Positions 1 to 63,400 of a stretch of DNA of 64,000 nt are shown one piece after another (within the stretch, counting starts at the first letter, position 1; every line of letters starts with the position of its first letter). A model generated the notes under the pieces. That model was given only the letters and a program-made list of their open reading frames with translations, had not been told where the DNA came from and made no database searches. The translations under genes were made by a program, and so were the position numbers. The stretch lies in the NCBI GenBank assembly GCA_030265395.1, contig JARFYF010000094.1, forward strand, positions 59,741,682 to 59,805,681, in the 5' to 3' direction. The stretch is from Rhina ancylostomus. Lineage: Eukaryota.

Positions 1-118
1 GAAAGCTATTTCTAAACTGGATAAAAAAACTTGATCAGAGATTTGCCAATTTGGAAATGCTGTTAAAGGAGATTGAATACAGACAAACAACACTAATACA
101 GGAAAATATTAAACAGCA

Positions 119-186
119 ATAATTGCTGAACTGAATGAAACATGGGAGGAGAAACTGCGCCGAACAGAAGCTATAAGAATGGAAAG
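119..186 (+). CDS. KIF1A: KIF1A coding exon (CC1 region), 5' boundary uncertain: IIAELNETWEEKLRRTEAIRME(R)
   Basis: Manual translation matches KIF1A CC1 as I recall it; donor AG|GTAAAG at 186/187 is phase 2, matching the next exon. No in-frame acceptor found upstream (see findings). Confidence 0.9.
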
Positions 187-829
187 GTAAAGCCCACTGC
201 AGAATATGTTATCAGCAAGATGGTTTCATAAAACCAGCAGGAGGTTCATGTGCAGCTTTCAGCTGCTTAGTTGATATAATCAGCACATAAACATTGGCAC
301 AAAGTCTGCTATTTGGGCCACACCTTTTTGCTGAGTTACCTAATTGTGATCGGGGCAACAGCATTAAATACTGGGGCATTATAATCAACATGTTTTTCCA
401 GGGACCATTGTTGCGGAGCTGAGACTTCTGCTCAGTAAAATGCTGAAGTGTCGATAAATCAGTGTGCACACAAATCACAAGTAGAATTAACTTGGGGAAG
501 ACAGCCCTGCAGCTTTGTTAAGAACAAGCAGTCAAAAGTTTCTTTTAGTTGGGCAAGGGCTTTAATTTTTGTTCCTGCATCCTCCAGTTCACACTACATT
601 GTTTTTTGAGTCATATATGGGAAGTGAGGTGTTGCTGGCAAGACCGTCATTTATTGATTATCCACAGAAAGGGGAACCACCAAAAATGTGGGGCAGGTCT
701 CCAGGTGAGCCGAAGCCTTTTCTATCTTGGAATTAGTCATGATCAGATTGGAAGGTGAAGACCAAAGACTAAGTGGCTCACACTTGATCCTGTATCCTTC
801 TGATATTCTTAATAATAATAAATAGCTCA

Positions 830-1165
830 TAGAGTCGTACAGGAAAGTAATTGACCCACTGAGTTTGTGCTGACCATTAAGCCCTCATGTACACTATTCT
901 TAACACTAATCTCATTTTATTGTCTGCACATTCCCATCAGCTGATCACAGATTGTTCCACTCACCTATCCACAAGGGCCAATTTACAGTAGCAGATTGAC
1001 CCACCAACTCACACACTTTTGGAATGTGGTAGGAAGCCAGAGTTCCAGGGGATATCCCAGGAAGAACAGGCAAACTCCACACAGACAATACTAGAGGTCA
1101 GGATTGAACCCAGATCTCCAGCAATGTGAGGCAGCAGCTCTACCAGCTGCATCACTGTGCCACCA
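830..1165 (-). mobile_element. HE1/V-SINE-like tRNA-derived SINE
   Basis: Reverse complement begins ggtggcacagtgatgcagctggtagagctgctgcctcac...gggttcaatcctgacc (A/B-box-like head) then the V-domain-like tgtgtggagtttgcctgttcttcc. Boundaries approximate. Confidence 0.75.
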
Positions 1166-2808
1166 GTTTAATTTATTTTTATGACAGTCTTCTACTATTT
1201 TAGCCCAGGAGCTTTCCACTTCATTTAATAGGAGATAATGGGATGAGGTTTCAACTTGCAGCCATAATTCTAGTGTGTAGATCAGCATCTATTATAGAAA
1301 CCTAATGATTTTCATTGGGCTTGTATTCCTTGAATATGGAAGACAGAGTGGTGATATGATTGGAAGATTTGAAATATTGAAGAGGTTGAAATGATTCCAG
1401 CTTAAGGGGGCACGCACAATAAAGTTAGAGCTGGGTAATTAGAGAAAGAAATGAGTAAGGGTAGCATGGAATATTGTGAAAAGACACCATAATGGATTAG
1501 ATGTGCAGATCAGTCAGGGTCTAACGGAGTGTTTCAAGGGGTTGAATGGGCAATTCTTGTTTCAGAAATGAAAACTGAATGTTTTCAACAAATCTAAGTC
1601 AATCCACAACGTGAGTCTAATGCTTGTGTTTAAGGATGAAAGCCCATCTCACTGTTAAAGCGGAGAGCAGAGGAATGTTCTATGAACGTGAAGTTCTATG
1701 AAATGTTGATTATTTGCAACGAATATGGCAGCAGAATTTTTAGGCCTTACATGGAGCCTTGTGGCACCAATGTTTACTGTTCCAGTGATCTTTTCAATGG
1801 TGTTCTAATGGTTGTGTCATGGTTCTGAGTTCTGGCCCTCAATTTGGCTCCATTAATGCCTTGTTGTCCAGCACATGGATTCCNNNNNNNNNNNNNNNNN
1901 NNNNNNNNNNNNNNNNNNNNNNNNNNNNNNNNNNNNNNNNNNNNNNNNNNNNNNNNNNNNNNNNNNNNNNNNNNNNNNNNNNNTATCCTGACTCCAGTCC
2001 TGTATCAGTGTGCCGCATTTGGGTTCTCTGTGAGTTTACTCTGGATCAACATTGTGACAGGTTGGGGCTTCCTAGGAGTGGATACAATATTCACATCTAT
2101 GCAAGACCATCCCCACATCACTCATGGTCTCGTAAACCACTCATTAATGCATCTACTTTCTGCACCCTCTCTAGTTTAATTGCATCATTCCTATAGCATG
2201 GCAACCACTACTGCACATAATACTCCAAGTACAGCCTAACCAATGACTTGCACAACTTGTGCAACCAACAGTCTGTACTTCTCAAGGATATGCTGGTTGT
2301 TAGGTTAATTGGCTACAGTAGATTACTTCTAGTTTACTGCCTGCTGATTATAATCAAGGGGGATAGTAATGGGCATGTGTGAGAGGATAGGTTACCAAGA
2401 AATAATTGGAAAGGGATTGCTCTGAGAGCATAGATTCAATGAGCCAAATGACCTCCTTCTATGTTAATATGAAATATGAGCTCATTAGTACTGAAACTGA
2501 TCATGTATGATATACTTAATAGCAAGTGTAGAGACTCTCAAGAACCATCTGACAAATATTACTTGTAAACTTTCTCCACAGATGTTTCTTTCTCTGCTAG
2601 AATCTAGGAACATATTTTTACTTTATTCCTCTGCAAAGTTGCCCTCAGACAACCTGTTTACGGGCTCACCTTCCAACAACTGCTTATGGATAATGCTGGG
2701 TTAGCTGCAGACGGCCAGTGGTTCAGTGCATAGAATTACAAAGTATTCATCCAGCCACCATTTATTCCCTTGTGCTGGAGCCAACAGCCCAAATCATTTA
2801 CTGTTTAG

Positions 2809-2931
<123 letters not shown>

Positions 2932-4308
2932 TAGGTTTGAAGAAGTTTGAACTAACTATTTCTATCTCAATTGCCCAGAGACATGGGAAGGCTGTTGCAG
3001 CTAAATGATGGTTTGGAATGGATGGTTTTGGTGAGCCCCTTGTTGGTTGGGAAAACTTATTGCCTATGCTCTGTAATATCTATTCATAAAGCAAATGAGA
3101 GCTTTCTCTCATGGGTTAAGGCAAGAGGCAAGCCTTCATCAATGTCATTGTTCTGCAACTTCAATGGAGATCAGGAAAATCTATCTGGCTTTACTACAGC
3201 AATGAGAAACAAATCAATAGGCCATATGTCCAATGTATGAAGTTTACAGTCATTGTTCCTAATTACTGAAACATAGTAGCAGAAACCCACAATGAGGTAT
3301 CATAAACAAGGAGATGAATGACCAACCTAGTATGTTTTTGCTTGGAAGATGAACATTGGCCAAGACAATTAGCAATCTTTTAACTGTCTTTCAACATTCA
3401 TTCAAAGACATGTATGATCTGAGCTTAACCTCTGCCTTTATGATGGCACCTACTGTTCTAAATATTATATTGAAGTTTCAAGAAGTTATGTGCATACAAG
3501 CCCTCAAGTAGAGTTTTTAAATGAGGTGAGGTTATACCTACTGTCGATTCAGACTTGAACATCTTGATTGGTTTATCAATTCTTCTACACACATTATAAG
3601 GATAATCGCTTTGTATTGTTTCTTCACAAAACAAGATGTTCCAAAGTACTTCATAGAAGAGTTTGACACAGATATATTATGGTAGAAAAGAGTTTGGTTT
3701 TCAGGATGTAGGTTTATAGAGGAAATTCCACAGGTTCAAGCCTTGGCAGCTGAGGACATGCAGCAAGTGGTAAAATGGTTGGATCTGGGATAGTCAAGTG
3801 ACCAAAACTGATGAAGTGCAAATCTTTCAGGAGGTTGTAGACCTGGAAGAAATTAAGGAAATATGGAGGCATGAGGCCATTTGAAAACAAAAGTGAGGAT
3901 TTTAAATCAAGGTATTGTAAACTAAGAGCTAATACAGGTCAGCAAGCACAGGAGTAACGTACAAAAAGCATTTAGTGCCTTCTGAAACATGGGCAGTCAG
4001 GTTTTAGACAATATGAAGTTTGCTTGCTGTAGGTTGAGTGAGAGCAATGGGAACATATTGGAATAGCTAACCAGTTGTAATAAAAACACAGATGAGGATT
4101 TCACCAGACAGTGAGCTAAGAAAGGTATAGGTGGGCAATGAAGTGGTGATGCAAATAGACAGCCTTTGTAGTAATGTTGAGATAAATTTTCTGAAGCGCA
4201 TATTGGGATGACATATTAGGCATCACAAGGATGGTGATTAGAAACTCAAGCATCCAAAGCATAGCTATCTGTTCCCAATGGAGGAATAGTGGGAAGGAGG
4301 AATATTTC

Positions 4309-4335
4309 AGTGTGTGTGTGTGCGCGCGCACACAC
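4309..4335. repeat. (TG)n(CG)n(CA)n microsatellite
   Basis: gtgtgtgtgtgtgcgcgcgcacacac read directly. Confidence 0.9.
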
Positions 4336-4631
4336 CAGTGCATGAGACTTAAACACATCTATGATGATGTACATTAATATTTATCCACTTTGTGAGTGAG
4401 TGTGTGTAAAACACATCTGATTTAACTGTAGTCAGCTGCACACCTCTGTCTAAATTCCAACAGTTGCTGCTTTCTAATTTGTATACCAGTGTCATTTGTT
4501 TTGTTTTTGCTATCTCCCCTACTCCCCTTTCCCATTGTTTCATCCCCCCTCCCCTCCCAACTCCCCTCCCGTCCCCTCCCAACTCCCCTCCCAACTCGTG
4601 CTCAACCCTGCAACTGTTTAATTCCTGTTAG

Positions 4632-4694
4632 ATTGAACATAGAAGAGCTGCTCAGATGTTGCTGGAGTCTCTGGGGGTGTTCTCTCCCAAGGAG
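4632..4694 (+). CDS. KIF1A: Candidate alternative KIF1A cassette exon IEHRRAAQMLLESLGVFSPKE
   Basis: ttcctgttag acceptor after a long pyrimidine tract, gtttgt donor, 63 nt, phase 0-0, no stop; the 3' end is paralogous to the preceding exon (LGVFSPKK). Confidence 0.6.
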
Positions 4695-7600
4695 GTTTGT
4701 TCTGGGTGACTGTGTGTGTGAAGTGTTGTGCTCGCTTTCATTTGGTTTGCTCAGTTATTTATGAGATGGAATCCCTGATTCCATTGGCTGGTTCTGATTC
4801 ATTTCTCAGCATCAATTCCCTCTCTTTACTGACCCAGTTTCACGGATGAAAAGATTGTAAATCTGTCAGATTTTGAAGATGTCTTTTGGACCTAACCCCT
4901 CCCTTACCACGACCCTGCCTTCTTGTCTCTCCCTTTCCTGTTTCTTCTTTACCTCTCTCCGCCCCTCCTTCTCCCTTTACTGTATCTTGTTCCAGACATG
5001 TGCTATCCATCCCACTTCCATCCATTCATCTCTTCCAACTTCCTCCTTTTGTCCCAATTATCTACTCCTCTATTTCTTTCCTCCTCCCCTCATTCTCTTT
5101 ATCACCTTCTCAACTGCTCCCTTTAAATGTCATCTAAAAGGTCATGAGAAACTGTGGCATGAGGAAATGATGCACTGTCCATCAAGCCTGCCAATTACAC
5201 AGCCTCGTTACAGTTGGTTCATTTAACTAACTGGGAGGGTGATCCCCTGATTTCCTCAAAAGGTAAAATTCCTTAAGTATCTAGCCTTCCATCCCACATG
5301 TTCTGTATCCTTGCGGGGTGGCTTTACCTGTGCATGAATCCAGCATCTCTCTGCACCCTATGTTGAGATGGGGTTTGACCATTTCTCTTTGTGTTTCTGC
5401 TTTGTGTTTCTACACACTCCTGTCAGTATAGTTTCCATTTCGAATATCATTAAGTCCCAGTATTTGTGCTGATTAAATGAACTGTCTGCACAGGTTCTAA
5501 TCATGATGCTGGAGGGTGTTCCCAAACTCCTCAATCCACGAAGACTATTGAGTTCTACAGTTCACCTGCACTGTTACCATTAGCCCAATGCAGTTTGCTG
5601 GATTGCTCCAGCATAGAGAGTCTGCTTGCACAGAGACATGATGGGTGACTGGCTTCATTAACAGTGAGATGCGTGTTAGGTTTTCAGGTTTTTGGGATCA
5701 ATGGAGCAGACTGCCATTATCATTGACATAGTGCTGCAGTAGGACAAATGAAGGGTAGATCGACCATATTACTTCCCCATGTTATCCATATAATCCCAGC
5801 ACTGAAGAGGAGAAGGCAAGTATTCGTGTGCATTAATTGGCATTGTCAGAAGCATTTAATATGTTAGACACACCAATATAGGCATGGCCTGAACTGGGTT
5901 TACAGTGTGACTGAGTCCTACTACAATCTTACTGAGATTCCAGGAGGGCCAGAAGATATTCCAGAAGAAATNNNNNNNNNNTTTACACAAACCTGAGAGG
6001 CATAAGCAGTCAGTACAATATAGAACCATAAAACAGTACAGCACAATATAGACCCTTCGGCCCCACCATGTTGTGCCGACCTTCAAACCACACCTAAGAC
6101 TATCTAACCCTTTCCTCCCACATATCCCTCTAACATATCACCCACAAGTCTCTGACTTTTAATTGTTCAGTTTATTCTTGAACAAGAGCAACTTGCATTT
6201 GTATGCCACCGCTAAAGCAGTAAAACATCTCAAGGTGCCATCCAGTGTCCCAAATATTATGGTACTCAATGGAGAAACTGAGCAATGTTAATCTACTGAT
6301 GGGAGTGACTTAGCCCTGTTCATAGAACAAACCTCACATAGAGGATCTCCAGAGGGAAGACCAGAGTATTAAAACTGGAATGTTTCCAGCTCCCTGATTG
6401 GGAACTAACGCTCTGTATTGTGATACCAAGGCACAAAAATCACTAATGTGATTCCTAATCCATCCTGAGTAAGTCTCAGTCAGAGCAACAGCAGTTACAC
6501 TGAAAGCTATGATCCTTTCTCAAAATCAAATACCAGTAATATCAGCCAGTGATTCCGAGTGCTGTTTGTTACCCATTCACTAGTGCTGGAAGTTGTGCAT
6601 GGAAACCCATCCTCAGCTCTGATACCTACACACCAGGGTTGTCCAGGTTCATGCACTCCGAATAGTTACTTGAGTGAACTCAAGGCACCTGTAGAACTGG
6701 GACCATTCGATAGAATCATAATGTTATATTAAAAGAAGGAGCCATTTGATCTGTGCTAATGTTTGGGAAGAGTTAACCTCTTGGTCACACTCTTTCCCCA
6801 CAGCTCTGCAATTATTCCTTCCTTGAGTAGATGTTTAATTCCTTCTGAAAAGTTACAACTGAATATTTTCCCACCACTTTCCTGCAATGCCCGTCACGTC
6901 ATGATGACTTGAGTGAAAAAAAAAGCCTTTACTTCTCCTCCATCCAGTTTTTAGAAAAGCAACATATCTTCAAAGGATCAGAGAGATGGTCGGTGGGGGA
7001 GGAGGAGTAAAGTACTATGGCAGTGTCCCCAATTCCCTGGTAAAGTTAACACACAATCCTTTGTGGGGTAACATGAATGTTGGTGTTTGCAACCTAAATC
7101 TCATCAGTCCATCAGCCAGTGATAATAAATCCTTTATAGTGTAAAAAAAAGATTGAAATATCATTAACACAGCATCTGCTGTCCATAAATGCCGCTCTCC
7201 CAAGTGCCACTGTTGAGGATGTGTTACACAGTGGAAGATGCATGGTTTTGGCAATGCATTCTGGGATACCTAAGGCATGCACCATCTTTTCCTTGCTGCG
7301 TCACCTGTAAGTATTAATGTTTGGATCTCCTGTGAGTAATCAACCTTGTGCTAGTTAGCTGTTGCATGGAGTTAACTGTTAATATTTTTCCTCTCAGAGT
7401 CACATTAAGGACCATAGATGATAGATGTATATTTGGCCTTGAAGTGTTCCAACCAGTCTAACAGATATATGCGTGTGTGTATGTGAGTGTGTGTGAGAAA
7501 TGTTTTGTGCATGACTGCAGCATCAAAGTCACAGCCATTGAACTTCAAAAAACAGAAACAGCAGCTGCATCTTTTAGAGGTTTTTGACCTCAAAGAATGA

Positions 7601-7699
7601 ATCCATAAACATCAAGATCCTCCACATTTTCACCTACATTTTCTTTCTGAAAAGGGTCCTGGTAATGAAGGTATCTCTTTACTTAGTATTCTGAAGTTG

Positions 7700-8245
7700 A
7701 ACATAGAACGTACAGCACAGGAACAGGCCCTTCAGCCCATAATGTTTGTGCCGACCATGATGCCAGCATAAACTGATTCTATCTGCCTGCACATGGTCTG
7801 TATCCCTCCATTCCCTGTCTGTTCATGTGCCTGTCTAAATACCTCTTAAATGTTGCTATCCCATCTGCCTCTTCCACTTCCACTGGCAGCAGAATCCAGG
7901 CATCTACCATTTTCTGCATAAAAAAACTTGCCTCATAAATCTGCTTTAAACATTCCCCTCACTTTAAACCAATGCCTTCTAGTATTTGACAATTTCACCC
8001 TGGGAAAAAGACTATCTACCCTTTCTAGGCCTCTCATTATTTTATATATTTCTATCAGCTTCCCCCTCAGCCACCAACACTCCAGAGAAAACAATCCAAG
8101 TTTGTCCAACCTCTTCGTATAGCTAATACTTTCTAATCCAGGCAACGTCCTGGCGAATCTCTTCTCCACCCTCTCCAAAGGCTCCACGTCCTTTCTGTAA
8201 TGTGGCAACCAGAACATACTCCAAAAATGGCCTAACCAAAGTTTT
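7700..8245 (-). mobile_element. CR1 LINE 3' fragment (ORF2 C-terminus plus 3' UTR)
   Basis: ORF 7933..8217(-) KDVEPLERVEKRFARTLPGLESISYTKRLDKLGLFSLE..LRGKLIEIYKIMRG is the typical CR1 ORF2 tail. Confidence 0.88.
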
Positions 8246-8686
8246 ATGAGGTGAAATGGGCGGGGAGCTGGACATCGAATGCAGGAATCCTTGGCACGTA
8301 CAGAGTGAGTGGGACAAAGAATGATCGTAGGTAAATCTTGCCATGCTTACTAAAAACTAACCAAATGGTAAAAGAACAATAAAAGCTTTGACTTATCCTT
8401 GCCACCCAAAGGATAAGAACTTCAATGGCCAAGAACCTGTTGACAAGAGGACCTGGGAGATAATTGGCATTAGTTGCCAAATTGAAAGCTTGTGTAGTGT
8501 TGCCAATTTGAAGGTTTATGTAGTAATCTTATTAATGCGGTGAGACAGCACGGCAACCTCCCAGGTAGACTTTGATGGAGCTGGATGTTAATTGTTTTTC
8601 AGTTCATTGGGAAACCCTTACAGTGTACACAGCAAATTAAAAAATTGTGATCAGGTCCCACATTTTTCAGGAGTAGAGGTCCCTAG

Positions 8687-8860
<174 letters not shown>

Positions 8861-22509: not shown

Positions 22510-22647
22510 GCAGAGACTGGACCTGATGCGTGAGATGTATGACCGTGCAGCTGAAGTGCCTTCCAGTGTGGTTGATGACTGTGACAATGTTATGACAGGC
22601 GGAGATCCATTTTATGATCGTTTCCCATGGTTCCGTTTGGTCGGAAG
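22510..22647 (+). CDS. KIF1A: KIF1A exon: [45 protein letters not shown]
   Basis: ctcctgcag acceptor, gtaaga donor, 138 nt, phase 2 to 2. Confidence 0.97.
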
Positions 22648-24559
22648 GTAAGAGAGCAATGAAGTTCTTTTTATAGCATTGTTTACCATGAAAACTAATA
22701 TTTGTAGTGGTGTATAGAGATGAGCAGTGAAGCCAGTGGAAACCCAGGTTAACTTCCAATTCCAGCTTCAATTGATTTGGTTTACAAACTGGCTTTCCCC
22801 ATTTCATTCGGATGACATGATAGAGCCCAGAAGCAATGTATCAATATTTAATGACTTGCGCTGCAAAATAGGTCTGTTCTTTACAGTTGGTAATAATTTA
22901 TACCAGTGCATTTGGATCCAAATGTGAAAGGATACTGCTCATCCCTAGCATTGTCTCCATGGAAATAGCAACGGGAGGTTAAGAGAGAAGTGGCTGTCCT
23001 GTCTCGACACTGACTGTGTGCTAATTCTCTTTGGAGTCCCAATATGTTTTCATCTGAATAATGCTGAAGCTTTCTCTACAGTCCAGCCTGTAGTATGGGT
23101 CTCTTCCTTAGATCAGAAGCACTTGACTAATCCAAGTGTTGTCATTCCTAACAGTCAGGATGGCATCAAATGCTACAATGTGCCACCAGCAATCTCCAAA
23201 TTTTTGCTGTCAGCTCCAGGTTGTGATTTGAGAAGGTAAATGGTCTACCATACATTCTCTAGGGTTATACAGTGGTTTCAATGGGAACTTGACCATCACA
23301 TATATTTTCTGTATATTTTCATTCTCTGGATTTTGGAGAAGCAAGGAAAGTTGCATATATTTCACTAATTTTTCTGAGAAACTGATGGAAACTTTCACTT
23401 TGAACTGTTGCACTCCTTGAGAAGCTGCTGTGATGTTGGTTAGGATAATTCAGGATGTTAACCCAGAAACAACAAAGATGATGATATGCTTAGTAGATTT
23501 TGAGTTTAGTCAATATTTGTAGGGAGACATTGTGATGCTAATGTACATTCTCTTAATCCTTTCTGTCCTCATTACCTTTCACCAACTTTCAAATTTCAGC
23601 CTTTCTACATTATCTTACTACACCGATATCTTGGCCCACTTCCTCATCACTAGGAAGGTTGCTAGTTCATATCACCTCTTGAGGCAGCAGGTTTGTTTCT
23701 CCAAGAACATGACACCGAAACAAATTGACAAGGCAATCAAGGAGCCAGGAAAATGAGCCACATATCTTCCATTCTGCATATTGAGTAGTGTGGTCACACA
23801 TACACATTCACATAATCGCTCATTGTAGGCAACCATTATGCAACTATGATTTTATGCCTACTTTTCCATATTGATTTGTGACCATCCAGCTCATTTCATT
23901 AAGCTTACTATAACTTTGGGAAAAACCCTTATTTATCTGTACCAACAGTTCCTCCCCAACCACTAATCACATGAACTATTAAAAGGAAAAGGGTTCTTAA
24001 CTGTTTAAATTCCTTCACAGTCTTAGTAATGAGTAGCCAATGAAGACGTTTGTTAGACCTGTTCTAAGTGAAACTCTTCAGTGAAGGTAAGACATCTGAT
24101 AGGCAGTGCTGACTTTTGTGTGCAATAACTAGGGGCTTTACTTGCAGCTTGACCAAGTGTAGGAGAAGATGGCCAACAGTTTGCAGAGAAGGTGGAGGGG
24201 GGTGGTGGGGATAGAAACACTCAGAGATCTTAGGCTATAAGTGGAACTGTTGGACATTGTCATTCCCTTGCAGTTTTGTGGGATTGATTCCCCAAGGAGG
24301 AGGTCAACCTCAAATGGCAGAGTTGTGTCTGGGCTGCTCTGCCTGTGGCCCTCCATTTTTTTGCCTCTGGCTCGTTCCAGGAAGAACATTGGGCCCTCTG
24401 ACCAACAGGCAGCAGCAAGAGCAGTGGCAGTGAGAGTACGAACTCTGTCATCCTGAGAATGGACTGCTGGTTTATGCTCCATTGGGATGCTATCAATGCC
24501 CCACAGTGCACTTCATCAGTGCTAGTAACCTGTTACACAGCAATAGGTGTTAACACATG

Positions 24560-29409: not shown

Positions 29410-32237
29410 GGGCAAGGCTCACATCCATCTCTTCTGTCAAGAGTATGCAAAGGGGCTGAGCAAGGGACAGGAGTCCAAAACTGACTGGCCTGAGAGGGCA
29501 GTGTTCAACTTGGAGTCTTGTCTGGGTTCAGCCACTGAGGAATCACTCTTGTGACAGTTGTACCAAGAGAAGAAGGAAGCACTGAGGCATTTGCAGCTCG
29601 AGGGGCCTTGGGCCATCAATGATTCTTCTGTCACAGATCTGGAGAGAATTGGTGCCTCAGTCCGCTCCCTTTACAAGACTATCTTCACCAGATACTTCCA
29701 ACAAGGATGCATGTAGAGTTTTGTGGGAGGACCTACCGAAAGTCAGCCCACAGGTTGCTGAGTGTCTGGACCTTCCTCTGATGATGGAGGAGCTGACCAG
29801 TGCCCTCCACTGGCTCCAGAGGGCATGGGGCAGCTCCTCCACCAGCAAATGCCCGGGACTGGATGGTCTGACCGTAGAGTTCCTCAGAGCCTTTTGGGAA
29901 ATCCTGGGAGGTGACTATGTGAGGGTCTTGGGGGAAAGCCTGGTGACTGGAGACCAACATAGTGTAGTCCTGCTGCCCAAGGGCAATCTCCACTGCTTGA
30001 GAAACTGGTGCCCAGTCTCTCACCTCAGCATGAATTATAAGGTCTTTGCCCAGGCAATGGCCAATCTTCTGGGCTTTGTACTGGCCCAAGTGATCCACCC
30101 TGACCGGTCCTACATGGTCCCAGGATAGTCCATTCAGGACAACATCCATCTGATCTGGGACCTTGTCTACCTGTCCCAGAGGGCTGGTCTGTTGGTTGCC
30201 TTTCTCTCTCTTGACTAGGCAAAGGCACTTGACAGGGTGGACCACGAGTATCTTTTTGGGATATGTTTGGAGTCGAGCTGCATTTTGTAGCCAAGTCTGA
30301 CTTTTGTATGCTGCTGTGAAGTGCATTGTGAAGGTAAATGGTCCTTGATGGCTCCCCTTCACTTTGGGAGACATGTACGTTAAGGATGCCCCATGTCTAG
30401 CCAGTTGCATTCTATCTGCTTAGAACCATTCCTGTGTCTTTTTTAGAGGCTGACGGGTCTGTCTTTGCATGGACTGGGCATGGAGGTGGTCCTCTCAGCC
30501 CATGCTGACAACATGCTCCTCATGGTCCCAGATGCTCATGACCTGGAGTACCTTACACCACCTCTACCTGGGAGTCTACCTACTGTAAGTCCCATTGAGG
30601 AAATCTAGCCAGTGAACTGGCTGGACATGGAGACGAAAGGTGTTGCCGGCAGATCATTGGTCATAAATCAACTGGTGATCTCCATGTTGTGGTACTGGTT
30701 AGTCACTTTGGTCCCACCCTTTGTCTTCATCACCAGAATCCAAAGAAAGTTGGTGGATTTCTTCTAGAGCAACAGGAAACACTACATCTCTGCTTACTTC
30801 TGAGTCTCCCAATCGGGGAGGGCAGTCAGTCGCTGGTGTGCATTTGTACCCAGATGGTGACTTTCTGCCTTTGGACCCTGTAGACACATCCATGTGCTGA
30901 GCATCCTCCTAAATGGCAAANNNNNNNNNNNNNNNNNNNNNNNNNNNNNNNNNNNNNNNNNNNNNNNNNNNNNNNNNNNNNNNNNNNNNNNNNNNNNNNN
31001 NNNNNNNNNNNNNNNNNNNNTGACTTACTTATTTCACCAAGGACATTGCCTCCTGGAGGACACACAGTTCCCAGCAGTGACCATCACCGTGCTGTTCTGA
31101 GGGAGTTGCCTAACTTTTACTGAGACCTGTTAAGAGCATGGGACATGGTTGTCTCCAGTCACAGCATTTTTCCATTGCCAGAGAGAGGCGTTTTGGCAGT
31201 GAGAGCAGCCAGCCCCCATCCTGTCACATTGGGTGTCAAGAAGGTCATGGTTGTGGAATGATTCTAACCACGCTAATCCTGGCTCGGCCAGAATTACTCC
31301 TCGGACCCAGGCTCCAGAACTTTTCTCGGGAGCTGATCCCGCATAATGTGAGCCATTTCTCAGAGATGCCCTTTATCCCATTCCATGACGTGCAGAAAAA
31401 TTTCCTGTACAGACTGCTTCTGCACACTGTACACTTCTTTGCTGTTATCTGCCATCTGGACATGTTGTGGAGGTCAGTTCTGCCATCTGGCAGTGAGTGG
31501 GATCCTCAGTGGAGGTCTATCTTTGTGGGAGTCTTCCCCCTTTACACCAGGTACCTGGGGTGGAGATTGTTGCAGATTTTTCAGCCAGTCTATGGACATA
31601 ACCTGTTGTCTGTCATTTCTACAGCCTGAAAGAGTCCATGTTCCATTATATATTGAATGTGAGAAGCTGCAGTTTCCATTTGCATATTTGAAAGGCCTGC
31701 TCCTTAAATTTTGGCTGTACCTTAACCCCACATTCCTGATCTTTGGGCATCAGGTGAGAGGTGGGGAGTAGGGTGGTGAAAGGGGATAGTTGTTTGTCGA
31801 GGGATCTCCTTGTGGGTCTGCTTCTGGACCCGGCCAAGGTGGCCATTCACGGATCCAGGTAGCGGGCAGTTGATGTTTCTGCCCAATCCAACTGCTAGCC
31901 CCTCTTCCAAGGTTACATCTGTACCCAAGTGTCCCTGGTGAAGGAGCACACAGTGACAACAAGCATCTNNNNNNNNNNNNNNNNNNNNNNNNNNNNNNNN
32001 NNNNNNNNNNNNNNNNNNNNNNNNNNNNNNNNNNNNNNNNNNNNNNNNNNNNNNNNNNNNNNNNNNNNAGCAGCGGGGAGGCCTTCAGGGACCCTGGGGC
32101 ATCCAACTGCATCCTGGATAACGATGACCATGTATTGATTAGCAGTTTGGGTGAATATATATAGAATGTGTTGAAAGTACTGCAGTATTGTAATGTTTTG
32201 AATTTATAACTTTGTAATGAACTTCTTTTAAAAAATA
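29410..32237 (+). mobile_element. Tx1-like (L1 clade) non-LTR retrotransposon, 5'-truncated, decayed ORF2 with reverse transcriptase
   Basis: ORF 29619..30128 KCPGLDGLTVEFLRAFWEILGGD...LLPKGNLHCLRNWCPVSHLSMNYKVFAQAMANLLGFVLAQVIHPDRSYMVPG; then SLD*AKALDRVDHEYLF and GCPMS; ends in A-rich ttttaaaaaa. Confidence 0.88.
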
Positions 32238-41044: not shown

Positions 41045-41338
41045 TTCCCCTGTCTCTGGCTGTACTAGTACTCCCATTTTCAACACTTGCATGACTGAGC
41101 GCATGGCTGATCTCACCCCCTCCCCCACCTTCTCGAACCCTGACTCTGACATCACTGAGCTCGCAGATGAGCAGCATGATGGGAAGGAGGAGGAGGAGGA
41201 GGATGAGGAGGAGCTGGACGATGAAACCTTTCTGGATGATCCCTTTTCTGACCTGGGGGGAGACGAAGGGTACCAGTTCCACCATGATGGCCAGGACCCG
41301 TTTTACGACCGCTCACCCTGGTTCAGTTTAGTGGGAAG
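41045..41338 (+). CDS. KIF1A: KIF1A acidic alternative exon: SPVSGCTSTPIFNTCMTERMADLTPSPTFSNPDSDITELADEQHDGKEEEEEDEEELDDETFLDDPFSDLGGDEGYQFHHDGQDPFYDRSPWFSLVG
   Basis: ccctag acceptor, weak gttggt donor, 294 nt symmetric phase 2-2; resembles the poly-Glu exon of the long human KIF1A isoform (NTCMSERMAALTPSPTFSSPDSD). Confidence 0.93.
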
Positions 41339-44299
41339 GTTGGTGAGGTCTCTAGAGCATGAAGGGAAGGGACTAGCTCTTTCACACTGAGAATAGTAAC
41401 CCCTGTGGCAAGTGGTCACAAGAGATCTTAATGCTGGAGCCATTATCCATTCACCATCAGTTCCAGATTTGCCTCAAGGGCTGCTGCCTCACACTGAGGG
41501 AGACCTAATTTAAGACATGGACTGTAATATTCTCCAATAATAGTGGAATAACCATCCAGAAGAAGAAAAAAAGGAAAGCTAAATAACACATTGGCATAAA
41601 CGTTGCAAGTGCCAAACAAAACTTCAAGTTCATGTTGTCAGATAGAGTGGAATCCTACTGTATGCAACAAAATCGTGAAATTCACGCCATCAGTGATTAT
41701 AACTTATCTGGGAATGCTGAAAGTTATATAGTCATATTAATCCATTGACAGTCTACTGTTGGGGTAGTAAGTTTCAAAAGCTGGGTATCTTACTGAAAAT
41801 TTATCCTTTGCTCTACGTAAGAGAGGATACTCTGAGCAGAGATTTCTGCAAATAATGTCGTCAACCCAGTGAAAGTGAGTGTGTTATTAGCTCATGACCA
41901 TTAGTGTGGGCTAATAGGATGCAGAACGCCCAATGGATCCCCAGGTGGATTCCCCTGTGTTTGGGGATATACTGACAGCAGCATTTTACCGATTGAGCTG
42001 CATGTTCCCTCTTGTCAGACACCTATTTATTCTACTTGACAATAAAATGCTTCAACTGGATTTTGGATGGGATGATCATGAGCACCAGATTTGGTCTTCT
42101 AAATCCAATGAGTGGCTAGCCAAAATGCATTCAGATAAACTGGTTAAATCTCTGTGCCTTTGCATCACAGTTGTATACATATGGATTCCATTGTATCTCT
42201 CAAAGGAAGACTGCTTTGTCAGTGGCTTCCAGCTTGGTTGACAATCGGGCACTGCAGTGAGACTTGCATTAATGCGCAATTTACTACCTTTTGTTAACTT
42301 ACTTTAAGAAGGATTGTGCATTTTTTTGTTTTGGAATTGTTAGCTCTTAAATCATTTGACATGCACTTGATAGAACTGGATTTTTTAGGAGAAACAGAAG
42401 GAATCAGCTCCTTCAGTAGAGATGTCAACTGCCTGTGTTTAGTCTCAGAGCCCCGTAACATCCAAGCAACAAATTCTGACTAGATAGTGTTCTAGCTAGG
42501 AAGGAGTAAACACTGAATTAGGAGAGAGAGCAAGGCTTCTGATGTGATAGAGAAGGGTGTTAACCGAAAGCACAAGTGAATGATCAGTTCAGTGAGCAAA
42601 AAAGCAGCAAAGAAGGACAATTTAGGGACATAGGAAGTAGCTGATGTGGATGACATCTCTTGAACTAACGGAGTGAACTGGAAGGAGGCATGGTACGGGA
42701 CAAAATTACAAAGGTAACATTGAGAAAGGCCACAAGGAGAGTTACAAAGGGGTGAATATTTTGAATTCCTGGAGTTAGAGGAATGAGAGATTATTGGAGA
42801 TGAGTGAGGGCAAGAGTTATAGGTGAGTGCACCTTAATGCAGGGTTAAGATGCAAGGAGTACAAATTCAATAAAGTTCAAGTTCAGGAGGCCAACAGTAA
42901 AAGTCTTGGTGAAATATGTTCTGGTGGCAATATACATGAGATTAATTGGGGCAGGGATGGTTATAAATTACCCTGGAAGTGGATAGGAAACACCCAGTGT
43001 GGGTCACTCTGCCCACTCCTCACAGTTCCAGGTGTGCAAGTTAGACTTAGCCCCTTCCTCAGTTTCCTTGGAAAGGATTACTCTTAGAACACCTCCTGAA
43101 CAGCTTGATAGTAAAGGTAATTAAATCTTCTGACCAACATCATTATTGGGGTGTGTAAAATATTTTTAAAATTATTTATTTTCTATTGCATTTAATGAAT
43201 ATTCATTGTATTGCTTCTGGTTTAGAAGCGTTTGTTTGAATTACAGCATTATGAATGTAAACCTCTCTAATAACTTGGAGGATTAGTCCAGGTGTCAATG
43301 CAGTTGCCTTGTCAATTTTATAATTCACAGCCCATTAATATTTATAGTTTCATCTGAGATCTTTTTTCACAGCTTTGAGTCCTACTGTTCTCCCGATGAA
43401 AGAGCTTGTCCCTTTACCAGCTCATCTCAATAGGGCATGCCAGACTTTCTGAGTAGGTCATGCCAAGGCATCGCAATAAGGCATGCCAAGGCATTCAGTT
43501 TCCAAACATGTTACAGTTAATCTCAATTGGCTATCCCAGCACAGCGGCTTTGAAAAAAATAATAAAAATAATTTTATCAAACTGTGCACGCACATTGGCA
43601 CCACTGTTTTGCAACCTGCTGTGCCGCCATTTTGAAAACCGCTGCACCAGATGCTGGGTATCTTCTGTTAATTTTACAGGCGCTACAGTAGAAGCTGGCT
43701 CTACCAATGTTTAGCCAATGTTTCCTTTCAACTGACGTTTATCATTTCTTTGTTTATTGTGTTGAAAGCTTTGTGTTCTGAGCATGCCACCTTTGCACCT
43801 CACCAATCTTGTTACCAGCTCCGTTGCATTGGGCACCGTATATTCAGTCTGCTTCAAGTGTCTTGCCATGCCCCAGGTATCTCTTTGTGGTTGTCGCATG
43901 AGTCACACAGATGTTTTTATTCCTGTTTATCCATTTTTGGATCAAACCTGTGCTCAGCTAATCAGTACAACATTGTCACTTGCCCCTGGAAGTAGTTGGA
44001 CAAGGAGGGGGGTTAATTTTGTTAAGAACCTTGTAATTTCTCTTCAGTAGAAATGCATTTAATTAAATACATATCCGTAATTATTTCTGTAGCAGCAGAA
44101 TCAATATCATATTTTAATTTCTCTTCACAAGGTTTGAAAGCAGATCTTGTACTAATGTTAGCAGTAAACACAATCGTATTTTATGATAAGCCCCTCCCAA
44201 AAATAAGATTGAAAATCATAAATTTATTCTAGATGTCCAAAGTTCAGCTGATAAATCATTTAATTTTGGTGGAACACTTTGGAGAGTATCTGATGCAGT

Positions 44300-60436: not shown

Positions 60437-63400
60437 GTAAGAGGAATAAACTTGTTTCATGCTTTTTTGATTCACATAGTAACATTAGAGGCTAGCAATT
60501 AGGTGGGAAACAGCACAAGGCCACCATTTTTGGTATGTAATATCCTTTACCCAATCATAAGCCATTTTACTGACAAAGATGGCTTTTTTTTGTATCCTGG
60601 GTGAGTACGTAAGTAACATTTCACCCCTTACTTTTGTAGACTAGGGACTGAATTTCATTGCTGTCACCAAAACTGATCAACTGGAGGTGTTGGTCCTGCC
60701 ATGCCTGGGTCCCTTACCTGATCTGTGCTCAGTTTGCTTGTTCTTCAGCCAAAGAGTAGCCAGTTGCCTGAGGGAAACCACTGAGTCAGCAACCTCAGGG
60801 CAGCAGGATAAAGAAGGAAGCAAGTATAATTGTATAGATCTCGATTCACATGCTCAGAAGATGGATTTCTGAATGTCAGGAAGTTCAGAAGTGGATAATC
60901 ACTCTCAATAAGATCAGTGGTCGGCATAGCAGGTTTCAGACATGATCAAGGCTTCTCATCAACTCTCGCAATCACATTGTAATTTTAATGCCAGCCTCTC
61001 AACGTTACCGTGAGAACAACCTTCTGCCTGAAACCCCCACCAACACATATTCCTTGGTACCAATCTCTGACCTCAGACTTTCTCCCAAGGATGATACTAG
61101 GGTAGAGTAGAGAGTTTGAGGTTCAAGGTATGAACCTTAAAACTCTACCTCTCTCCTGTGGCCTGGTATCAATCTTAGCCTCAATCTGTCCACATCAGTC
61201 CAATGGCACATTTTAACTTCAGCCTGTGATCATTATACTAACCTTGATCTCGATCATTATACTTGCCCTGAACTGCTGTAAAATGAACACTTCAGCTTTC
61301 ATTAGTATGGTGGTACCACCCGGCATCAATCTCCTCACCAGATTCAACAAATCTGAAGTTGCAAAGGAAAGATACACCACATCAATCCTCCACACCAACA
61401 GCACTAGACGTGGCAGTGATGGCAGAGCTTTCACACTGATAAATCACGCAACACCTTGACACAACCATACCAATCAGACAATGTTGCAGACTCCTCCCTC
61501 ATGTTCCTGGACATACACATTTCCATTGCAGGAGAGATCGATTAGAAGTGATGACACAGTGGAATATGGTCAAAAGAGAGTGCCAGGAATGGTCTTTATT
61601 GACCATGTTAACCGAGCCTTGAATGACTTAATGGCCAGACTAGTGACAGCTGTTGGTGTTACCCCAAGTGATGTAAGGGCATGGTTCATTGACCTACAAT
61701 GCCACCTTGTCGGAAAGGTGCACTGCTTTTACCGAGTACTGTCAGGGCAGAGAGCTGGTGTGGCTCTGGCCTCAGTTCTCAAAGTATCAGCACCTGAAAT
61801 CAGAGATGTTTGCCAGGGCTGGATAATATTCAAGGACAACACTCAGGTTTTCTCTAGCGCATGGAGGGGTGGGAATACTAACATGTTTTCCTTTCTTCAT
61901 TAGACAATCTGTTGGAGTTGGTGCAATGTTATGATTTATGTTGTTTTCTGTTCCCATTACACACCTGGCAGAGAATGAGAAAGCACTTGTTTTGATTAGA
62001 CACCTGATGCCAAATGGGTTGAGCCTTCCATTCCTGGACTCGCTATCCATGCACGCCGTGTCTGCTGCTAGTGTTGCTGTTTCCTATCTCTCCGAGGAGG
62101 AGGATTGTGCTCCCTTGCCCCTTCCTAATGCCCTTGGCTGTGCTGTCAGGAAAGCCCAGACACATGGTTTGTAGTAAAGGAGCCTGTTGGAAGTCTCTTT
62201 GATNNNNNNNNNNNNNNNNNNNNNNNNNNNNNNNNNNNNNNNNNNNNNNNNNNNNNNNNNNNNNNNNNNNNNNNNNNNNNNNNNNNNNNNNNNNNNNNNN
62301 NNNNNNNNNNNNNNNNNNNNNNNNNNNNNNNNNNNNNNNNNNNNNNNNNNNNNNNNNNNNNNNNNNNNNNNNNNNNNNNNNNNNNNNNNNNNNNNNNNNN
62401 NNNNNNNNNNNNNNNNNNNNNNNNNNNNNNNNNNNNNNNNNNNNNNNNNNNNNNNNNNNNNNNNNNNNNNNNNNNNNNNNNNNNNNNNNNNNNNNNNNNN
62501 NNNNNNNNNNNNNNNNNNNNNNNNNNNNNNNNNNNNNNNNNNNNNNNNNNNNNNNNNNNNNNNNNNNNNNNNNNNNNNNNNNNNNNNNNNNNNNNNNNNN
62601 NNNNNNNNNNNNNNNNNNNNNNNNNNNNNNNNNNNNNNNNNNNNNNNNNNNNNNNNNNNNNNNNNNNNNNNNNNNNNNNNNNNNNNNNNNNNNNNNNNNN
62701 NNNNNNNNNNNNNNNNNNNNNNNNNNGCTGCAAACCCATCCTCATGTACCTGACTAGGGCGTTCTACATCCTGACTAGGGCTCTGGTTGCACACCCAGCC
62801 AATACATCCAGTAATATAGAGCAAATCTCACACGCATGGGGATGCATGGATAGTAATTCCATGAATACTGAGGACTTTGTGTACTAACCAGTGAGGCAGA
62901 TGCTGAAATATTGGGATTTCCAAACAATTAGATACCAGGTTTTTGGAGTTTTACTGTACCTAATTCATCTCTTCCATGTACAGTTGGATAACTCACCTTC
63001 CTGACTTCCTGTCTTTTCTGAATGTGAAATCTGGTGCTCAAACACACTCAGAACACCTTCCTTCCCACTAAACATACATTGTAGTGGCTTACCACGGCAG
63101 GGAGTAGCTGAAATCTGAAACTGCTATGGTTTATTCGACAGGTTATAGATTCTTCCTTTCCTCTTTTCATTTCTGTTCCTTGATTTTGGGCTAACTGAAG
63201 AAAAGCAATATTCTTCTGGTGGAATCTTGGTCTGTAAATTTCTGCATCCTCCCTGATGAAGAATTTTACTGCAAGTCCCCAAATATTGACCTGTGAGGAA
63301 ACATCATTCTGTCTGCTTGTATAAAATGGTGATTCCCCAGTTTATCCCACTCACTTCTCTTGCCCCTGGTGATGTAACCAACTCAAAGCCACTTCCCATA

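Follow-up and report, generated by a model that had tools for sequence, protein, structure and literature searches.

A conserved in-frame cassette exon at the CC1-FHA linker of elasmobranch KIF1A, its probable origin by exon duplication and its likely use in the retina

Kinesin-3 motors fold their CC1, FHA and CC2 against the motor domain, and CC1-FHA forms a dimer when they are activated (PMC9314371, PMC8298099, 10.1101/2023.12.24.573241). Alternative exons of these motors have been described. The 9-residue hinge insert encoded by exon 13 of Kif1a raises dimerization and activity (PMC12436618). For chicken KIF1B, two adjacent exons of 63 nt are listed whose PSI values are 19.1 and 21.5 in retina and ≤0.3 elsewhere, including brain, and which are located upstream of retina exons of 201 and 27 nt (PMC9303857 Dataset S1). 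In mouse, the 201-nt KIF1B exon is rod-specific, with an inclusion of 72.7% in rods (PMC6952364 supplement).

The window, which is the whole 64,000-nt stretch of Rhina ancylostomus DNA analyzed here, contains the corresponding region of elasmobranch KIF1A. Over the 158 residues of five window exons, a ray KIF1A was identical at all 158 and a shark KIF1B at 146, and a separate KIF1B locus was found in the same genome. The exons around the CC1-FHA linker are as follows:

119..186, forward strand, upstream CC1 exon, the 5' end of which is missing from this assembly
2850..2925, forward strand, exon A, constitutive, phase 2-0, encoding the end of CC1 plus the hairpin
4632..4694, forward strand, exon B, a 63-nt phase 0-0 cassette exon encoding the 21 residues IEHRRAAQMLLESLGVFSPKE
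8720..8799, forward strand, exon C, the next constitutive exon (TPHLVN...), where the FHA region begins

The hairpin, according to work attributed to Huo in 2012, reportedly is the beta-finger of the CC1-FHA dimer interface. Over 25 residues, exon A was identical to the KIF1A CC1-FHA chains of PDB entries 4EJQ and 4EGX. At positions 1-118, a dispersed repeat with 40 scored matches, one of them 98% identical (on contig C63), replaces the expected acceptor and the first four codons of the exon at 119-186; the likely cause is a join made in assembly, and not damage to the gene. In addition, the same contig carries a more distant kinesin-3 exon with an LVNLNEDP motif (G000:C63:47581630-47581845, locus L015). 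The long intron of the window also contains a 180-residue open frame (29586-30128, forward strand), which we take to be a decayed piece of a retrotransposon reverse transcriptase.

The preliminary description of this DNA had read 4632-4694 as IEHRRAAQMLLESLGVFSPKE between ...cctgttag and gtttgt, and this reading was exact. The exon has AG and GT at its ends, a length that is a multiple of three and no stop codon, as a cassette exon should. With 63 nt, it is not a neural microexon, a class of 3-27 nt with its limit at 27 nt, and its DNA is single-copy in this genome. Its surroundings contain the following features:

4474..4478, forward strand, candidate distant branch point CTAAT, a motif match only
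4490..4629, forward strand, AG exclusion zone with a long pyrimidine tract
4630..4631, forward strand, AG that serves exon B as acceptor, the first past the 140-nt AG-free zone
4641..4642, forward strand, internal AG that would give a 52-nt replacement exon, a use that is unsupported
4695..4700, forward strand, donor gtttgt of exon B
4695..4777, forward strand, conserved downstream intron flank, which aligns in organisms B, F and G

Upstream of exon B, C and T made up 78% of positions 4481-4620, TGC was found at 4609-4611 and a second branch point candidate at 4618. AG-free zones ahead of an acceptor are over-represented in alternative exons (PMC1431707), which suggests that the zone at 4490-4629 may be regulatory. 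The donors of exons A and B had been described as matching; they differ at +3, where exon B has gtttgt and exon A has gtatgt.

Exon B had also been called hidden. It is, however, already part of the predicted RefSeq KIF1A of two skates, where it lies between FSPKK and TPHL, the very junction at which a 63-nt in-frame insert had been proposed. In Amblyraja radiata (XP_032887359-362, isoforms X1-X4), the insert has the same junction and length and shares 20 of 21 residues, differing at position 3 only; in Leucoraja erinacea (XP_055502045, X1), junction and length are again the same and positions 2 and 3 differ. Isoform X4 of A. radiata was recovered with a profile of exon A plus exon B. Among the 14 full-length members listed of the skate cluster, these five include exon B and nine skip it, and both forms occur within Amblyraja as well as within Leucoraja, as predicted isoforms rather than reads. 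All protein support comes from predicted models (XP_ or Ensembl). RefSeq models of this kind are built from RNA-seq. An unbiased search yielded 161 full-length shark and ray KIF1A isoforms (104 + 57; the longest isoforms of several species lie outside this set), and exon B was absent from all of them.

Similar segments recur at the same place in other vertebrates. With a second profile, all 120 of the top 120 matches had units of 20-23 residues, or two units, at the junction of exons A and C. The KIF1A units were 21 residues long in chicken and a cyprinid, 22 in a catfish, 23 in a killifish and 20 in Dallia, and a zebrafish fragment also had one. In KIF1B, a single 21-residue unit was found in kiwi, owl, rattlesnake and colugo, and two units in sharks and many birds. 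Over all collected proteins, clean units were present in 38 KIF1A and 113 KIF1B proteins, a count from which three salmon models and one skink model with intron read-through were left out, as were four turtle models. These turtle KIF1A models (P0292, P0294, P0296 and P0298) have an 8-residue leucine-rich extension before exon A, which probably reflects another acceptor or a model artefact. Moreover, the KIF1B locus of this genome (L014) has two such exons in the matching intron:

G000:C59 about 24615671-24615730, minus strand, KIF1B B1, 60 nt, phase 0-0
G000:C59 about 24612965-24613027, minus strand, KIF1B B2, 63 nt, phase 0-0

Exon B shared 36 of 63 bases with B2, and its acceptor junction is likewise tag|ATT; the donors of B1 and B2 are both gttggt. 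In protein comparisons, exon B scored 40 with B2, 38-40 with teleost KIF1A units and 28 with exon A. The A-C intron of KIF1A yielded no further unit; the next score there was 6.1. That exon B is a real exon, as proposed, is borne out by the predicted skate proteins together with this repeat family, and it is very likely an in-frame cassette exon.

Between the last eight codons of exon B and those of exon A there are five differences, four of them synonymous and one non-synonymous, as had been noted, and the codon preceding them encodes T or S in the two exons. Over the last nine residues, 20 of 27 bases are identical. When exon A was used as query against the 17,639 six-frame windows of the window, exon B was the best non-self match with a score of 38 vs. 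32 for the next, a modest margin. With a matrix of non-skate units only, exon B ranked first among 123,562 positions (34.9 vs. 15.0). Homology between the two exons appears secure for the last nine residues only. Over the N-terminal half of the unit, the match to exon A was not significant (483 of 2000 shuffles; 19 units, two of which are read-through artefacts). An alignment in which the Arg conserved at position 5 of the unit marks an old phase-2 acceptor, the unit being exon A minus its hairpin, was plausible but not significant. The intron phases also differ, exon A being 2-0 and the supported form of exon B 0-0. Elsewhere in the window, the ends of the neighboring KIF1A exons at 22598-22648 and 41289-41339 repeat each other (..DPFYDRSPWFSLVGR in one), another instance in which the end of an exon recurs in the optional exon that follows it.

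The duplication is very likely older than the split between KIF1A and KIF1B. The simplest reading would be one tandem duplication before the two genes separated, followed by another in KIF1B or by a loss in KIF1A. The best explanation of the whole, to which we give a probability of about 0.6, is that exon B is a conserved KIF1A cassette which arose when, long ago, the end of the exon before it was duplicated in tandem, that it would be included mainly in retinal photoreceptors and that, as a spacer of 21 residues separating the hairpin of CC1 from FHA, it would loosen the autoinhibition of the motor. A linker lengthened by a repeat of [ST]-x-G-V-F-S-P would be expected to shift the balance between monomer and dimer, because linker geometry matters both to the CC1-FHA dimer and to the compact lock that CC1-FHA forms with the motor.

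With regard to function, the insert leaves the hairpin intact; its 21 residues come between hairpin and FHA and end in a copy of the closing segment. That it acts as a spacer which weakens the folded state is a tentative proposal, to which we give somewhat less than even odds; the 9-residue insert of the nearby hinge (PMC12436618) is a precedent for such an effect. Lineages differ strongly in the N-terminal half of the unit, which fits a spacer and also weak selection at the protein level. Mean pLDDT was 35 and 42 in structures predicted with and without a unit, values too low for use. Instead of a plain spacer, the insert might provide the neighborhood of the FHA domain with another Ser/Thr-Pro site or with a copy of a beta-strand that could be swapped. 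For this speak the S/T-P retained in 16 of 17 distinct units, the G, F and P of GVFSP as the most conserved columns of the unit, and the residue after GVFSP, which stays basic in KIF1B units and is E or Q in all KIF1A units. The same codons, however, flank the donor, and their conservation may serve splicing. We regard this reading, the main mechanistic alternative, as rather improbable.

The tissue in which exon B is used may be judged from its KIF1B relatives. In bird KIF1B models, the recurring optional segments were of 6, 14, 26, 21, 83, 67 and 9 residues, and those of 67 and 9 residues correspond to the 201-nt and 27-nt retina exons. The two 63-nt retina rows of chicken are very likely the two KIF1B units, an assignment by gene, size and order rather than by sequence, because the units are the only recurring 21-residue segments and are located upstream of those of 67 and 9 residues. 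KIF1A also has a paralog of the 201-nt rod exon, which encodes 65-73 residues at a site that equals that of the 67-residue KIF1B segment. All five X1 models that carry exon B included it, and all six that lack exon B did not (p 0.002); three of the five positive models came from searching for the insert, and the co-occurrence could result from deeper neural sampling rather than from retina. In the window, an optional KIF1A exon of 195 nt, phase 1-1, is found at 61972-62166 (forward strand); it encodes 65 residues and has a gtttgt donor like that of exon B. Models of Amblyraja and Leucoraja include it, at the position that the 201-nt rod-specific exon has in KIF1B; the other shark and ray isoforms seen lack it.

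Against a retina bias, the retina lists of PMC9303857 Dataset S1 had no 63-nt KIF1A exon among their 14 kif1 rows; chicken KIF1A has no row there. In the same paper, TAG is the Musashi motif. No TAG was found in the 200 nt after exon B, vs. 2.3 expected and five after KIF1B B1, so exon B falls outside the retina-enriched long exon class (RetLONG) as far as downstream TAG is concerned. The other mark of RetLONG, a high PSI in retina and near zero elsewhere, is shown by the likely KIF1B paralogs in chicken. On balance, KIF1A exon B is probably retina-biased. Exon B could also be a real cassette exon of pan-neural use, or of another sensory cell such as the hair cell or electroreceptor. Such use would agree with the retina lists and with the lack of a downstream TAG, as well as with the six TGCATG motifs in the A-C intron (about 2.2 expected, p 0.03), none of which is within 290 nt of exon B. 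The sister KIF1B exons, however, look retina-specific, with neural PSI of 0-0.3, exon B co-occurs with the paralog of the rod exon, and it is missing from the 161 shark and ray isoforms, all of which make pan-neural or other sensory use unlikely.

Exon B and its splice sites showed no substitution in the DNA contigs of organisms B and G. In organism G, there were no changes at the 63 positions of exon B vs. 12 at the 79 scored flank positions (Fisher p 0.001), in an alignment that ends at 4784, about 90 bases downstream of the exon. The 63 unchanged positions of organism B, which is too close, were not significant alone (P 0.14). A contig of organism F over 4612-4777 had three differences. In X14, the piece over 4345-5000 had 26 differences, of which 12 were listed, with others near piece ends or under C-rich pile-ups. 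Because there were no substitutions, dN/dS has no value for exon B. Part of 4590-4780 was found in 20 of 24 sequencing-run rows from 8 organisms, with no RNA run among those listed; only runs that were aligned in detail serve as evidence here. In the raw RNA run X24, KIF1A exons were covered at a depth of <1, and the matches listed, in a table crowded by repeats with 154 further joints beyond the listing, included no joint between exons. X13, which is RNA only by guess, had an unspliced contig spanning exon B and its flanks. X22 and X5 gave no piece over exon B among the matches listed (110-8850), and X10 and X18 no cover of it (4345-5000). The complete lack of synonymous change in organisms B and G points to constraint at the RNA level, as expected if this were a conserved intronic regulatory element or a dead exon that gene predictors sometimes take in, with no usefully abundant peptide. 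The open frame and near-constant length of the unit in sharks, teleosts, reptiles, birds and one mammal, in two genes, and the inclusion values measured in chicken for the exons that are likely the KIF1B copies argue against this reading and render it very improbable.

The preliminary description had further proposed a splice switch, in which the AG at 4641-4642 gives a 52-nt exon that takes the place of exon A and deletes the hairpin. The part of that proposal which holds is the relation of exon B to the end of exon A; the exon is inserted instead of swapped. The description did not foresee that the duplication would predate the KIF1A/KIF1B split, that KIF1B would have two copies or that retina, rather than brain in general, would be the likely tissue. 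Although that AG does give 52 nt in the phase of exon A, and in KIF1B B2 an AG of the same phase follows three bases later, replacement is very improbable and the least probable reading, as none of 340 proteins with both anchors lacked the hairpin (the profile searches favored forms containing exon A, yet the 340 include the 161 isoforms found without bias for the junction), all 38 KIF1A models with a unit retain exon A, contrary to mutual exclusivity, 4630-4631 is the first AG past the 140-nt zone, B1 has no AG at the corresponding place and the KIF1B sister exons also begin in phase 0 (tag/cag|AT).

Exon B thus appears to be an ancient alternative exon, annotated but undescribed, in the regulatory hub of the motor. 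No description of the exon family was found in the literature on KIF1A and KIF1B splicing and structure (subscription journals were outside the coverage). What is new here is that a family is recognized, together with its age and the tissue in which it is likely used; the exon itself was already in database models. Whether KIF1A and KIF1B remain folded, or dimerize and run, is decided by the CC1-FHA region, and mutations make KIF1A a disease gene. A very old natural insert at the CC1-FHA linker offers a ready test of how linker length relates to activation, and the exon family would tie kinesin-3 control to the photoreceptor splicing programme. More speculatively, and with considerable doubt, KIF1A and KIF1B may share a serially duplicated linker cassette predating jawed vertebrates, of which photoreceptors would set 0, 1 or 2 repeats, each serving as a second closing strand of the hairpin, in an undescribed graded kinesin-3 switch; an unannotated counterpart may persist in human KIF1A or KIF1B introns. 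If so, that counterpart would sit where disease variants go unscreened.

Among known systems, the closest are the Amblyraja and Leucoraja isoforms, which are predictions carrying no functional description. The chicken KIF1B exons GgaEX2015682 and GgaEX2015683 (PMC9303857), adjacent and of 63 nt each, are likely two KIF1B units at the same junction. Different from exon B, they belong to the sister gene, come in two copies and are known as table entries only, in a dataset that does not list the KIF1A copy. Similar to exon B, exon 13 of Kif1a and the KIF1B hinge inserts (PMC12436618) are optional in-frame exons of the stalk that alter dimerization and activity, an effect that for exon B is predicted. 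Exon 13, however, lies at the hinge between neck coil and CC1, upstream of the site of exon B, encodes 9 residues and does not repeat its neighbor. Finally, the substitutions derived from tandem exon duplication (PMC8373072), the main text of which does not name KIF1, likewise involve old homologous tandem pairs conserved to fish. Those exons replace each other, whereas exon B is a partial copy in another phase that is added to its parent.
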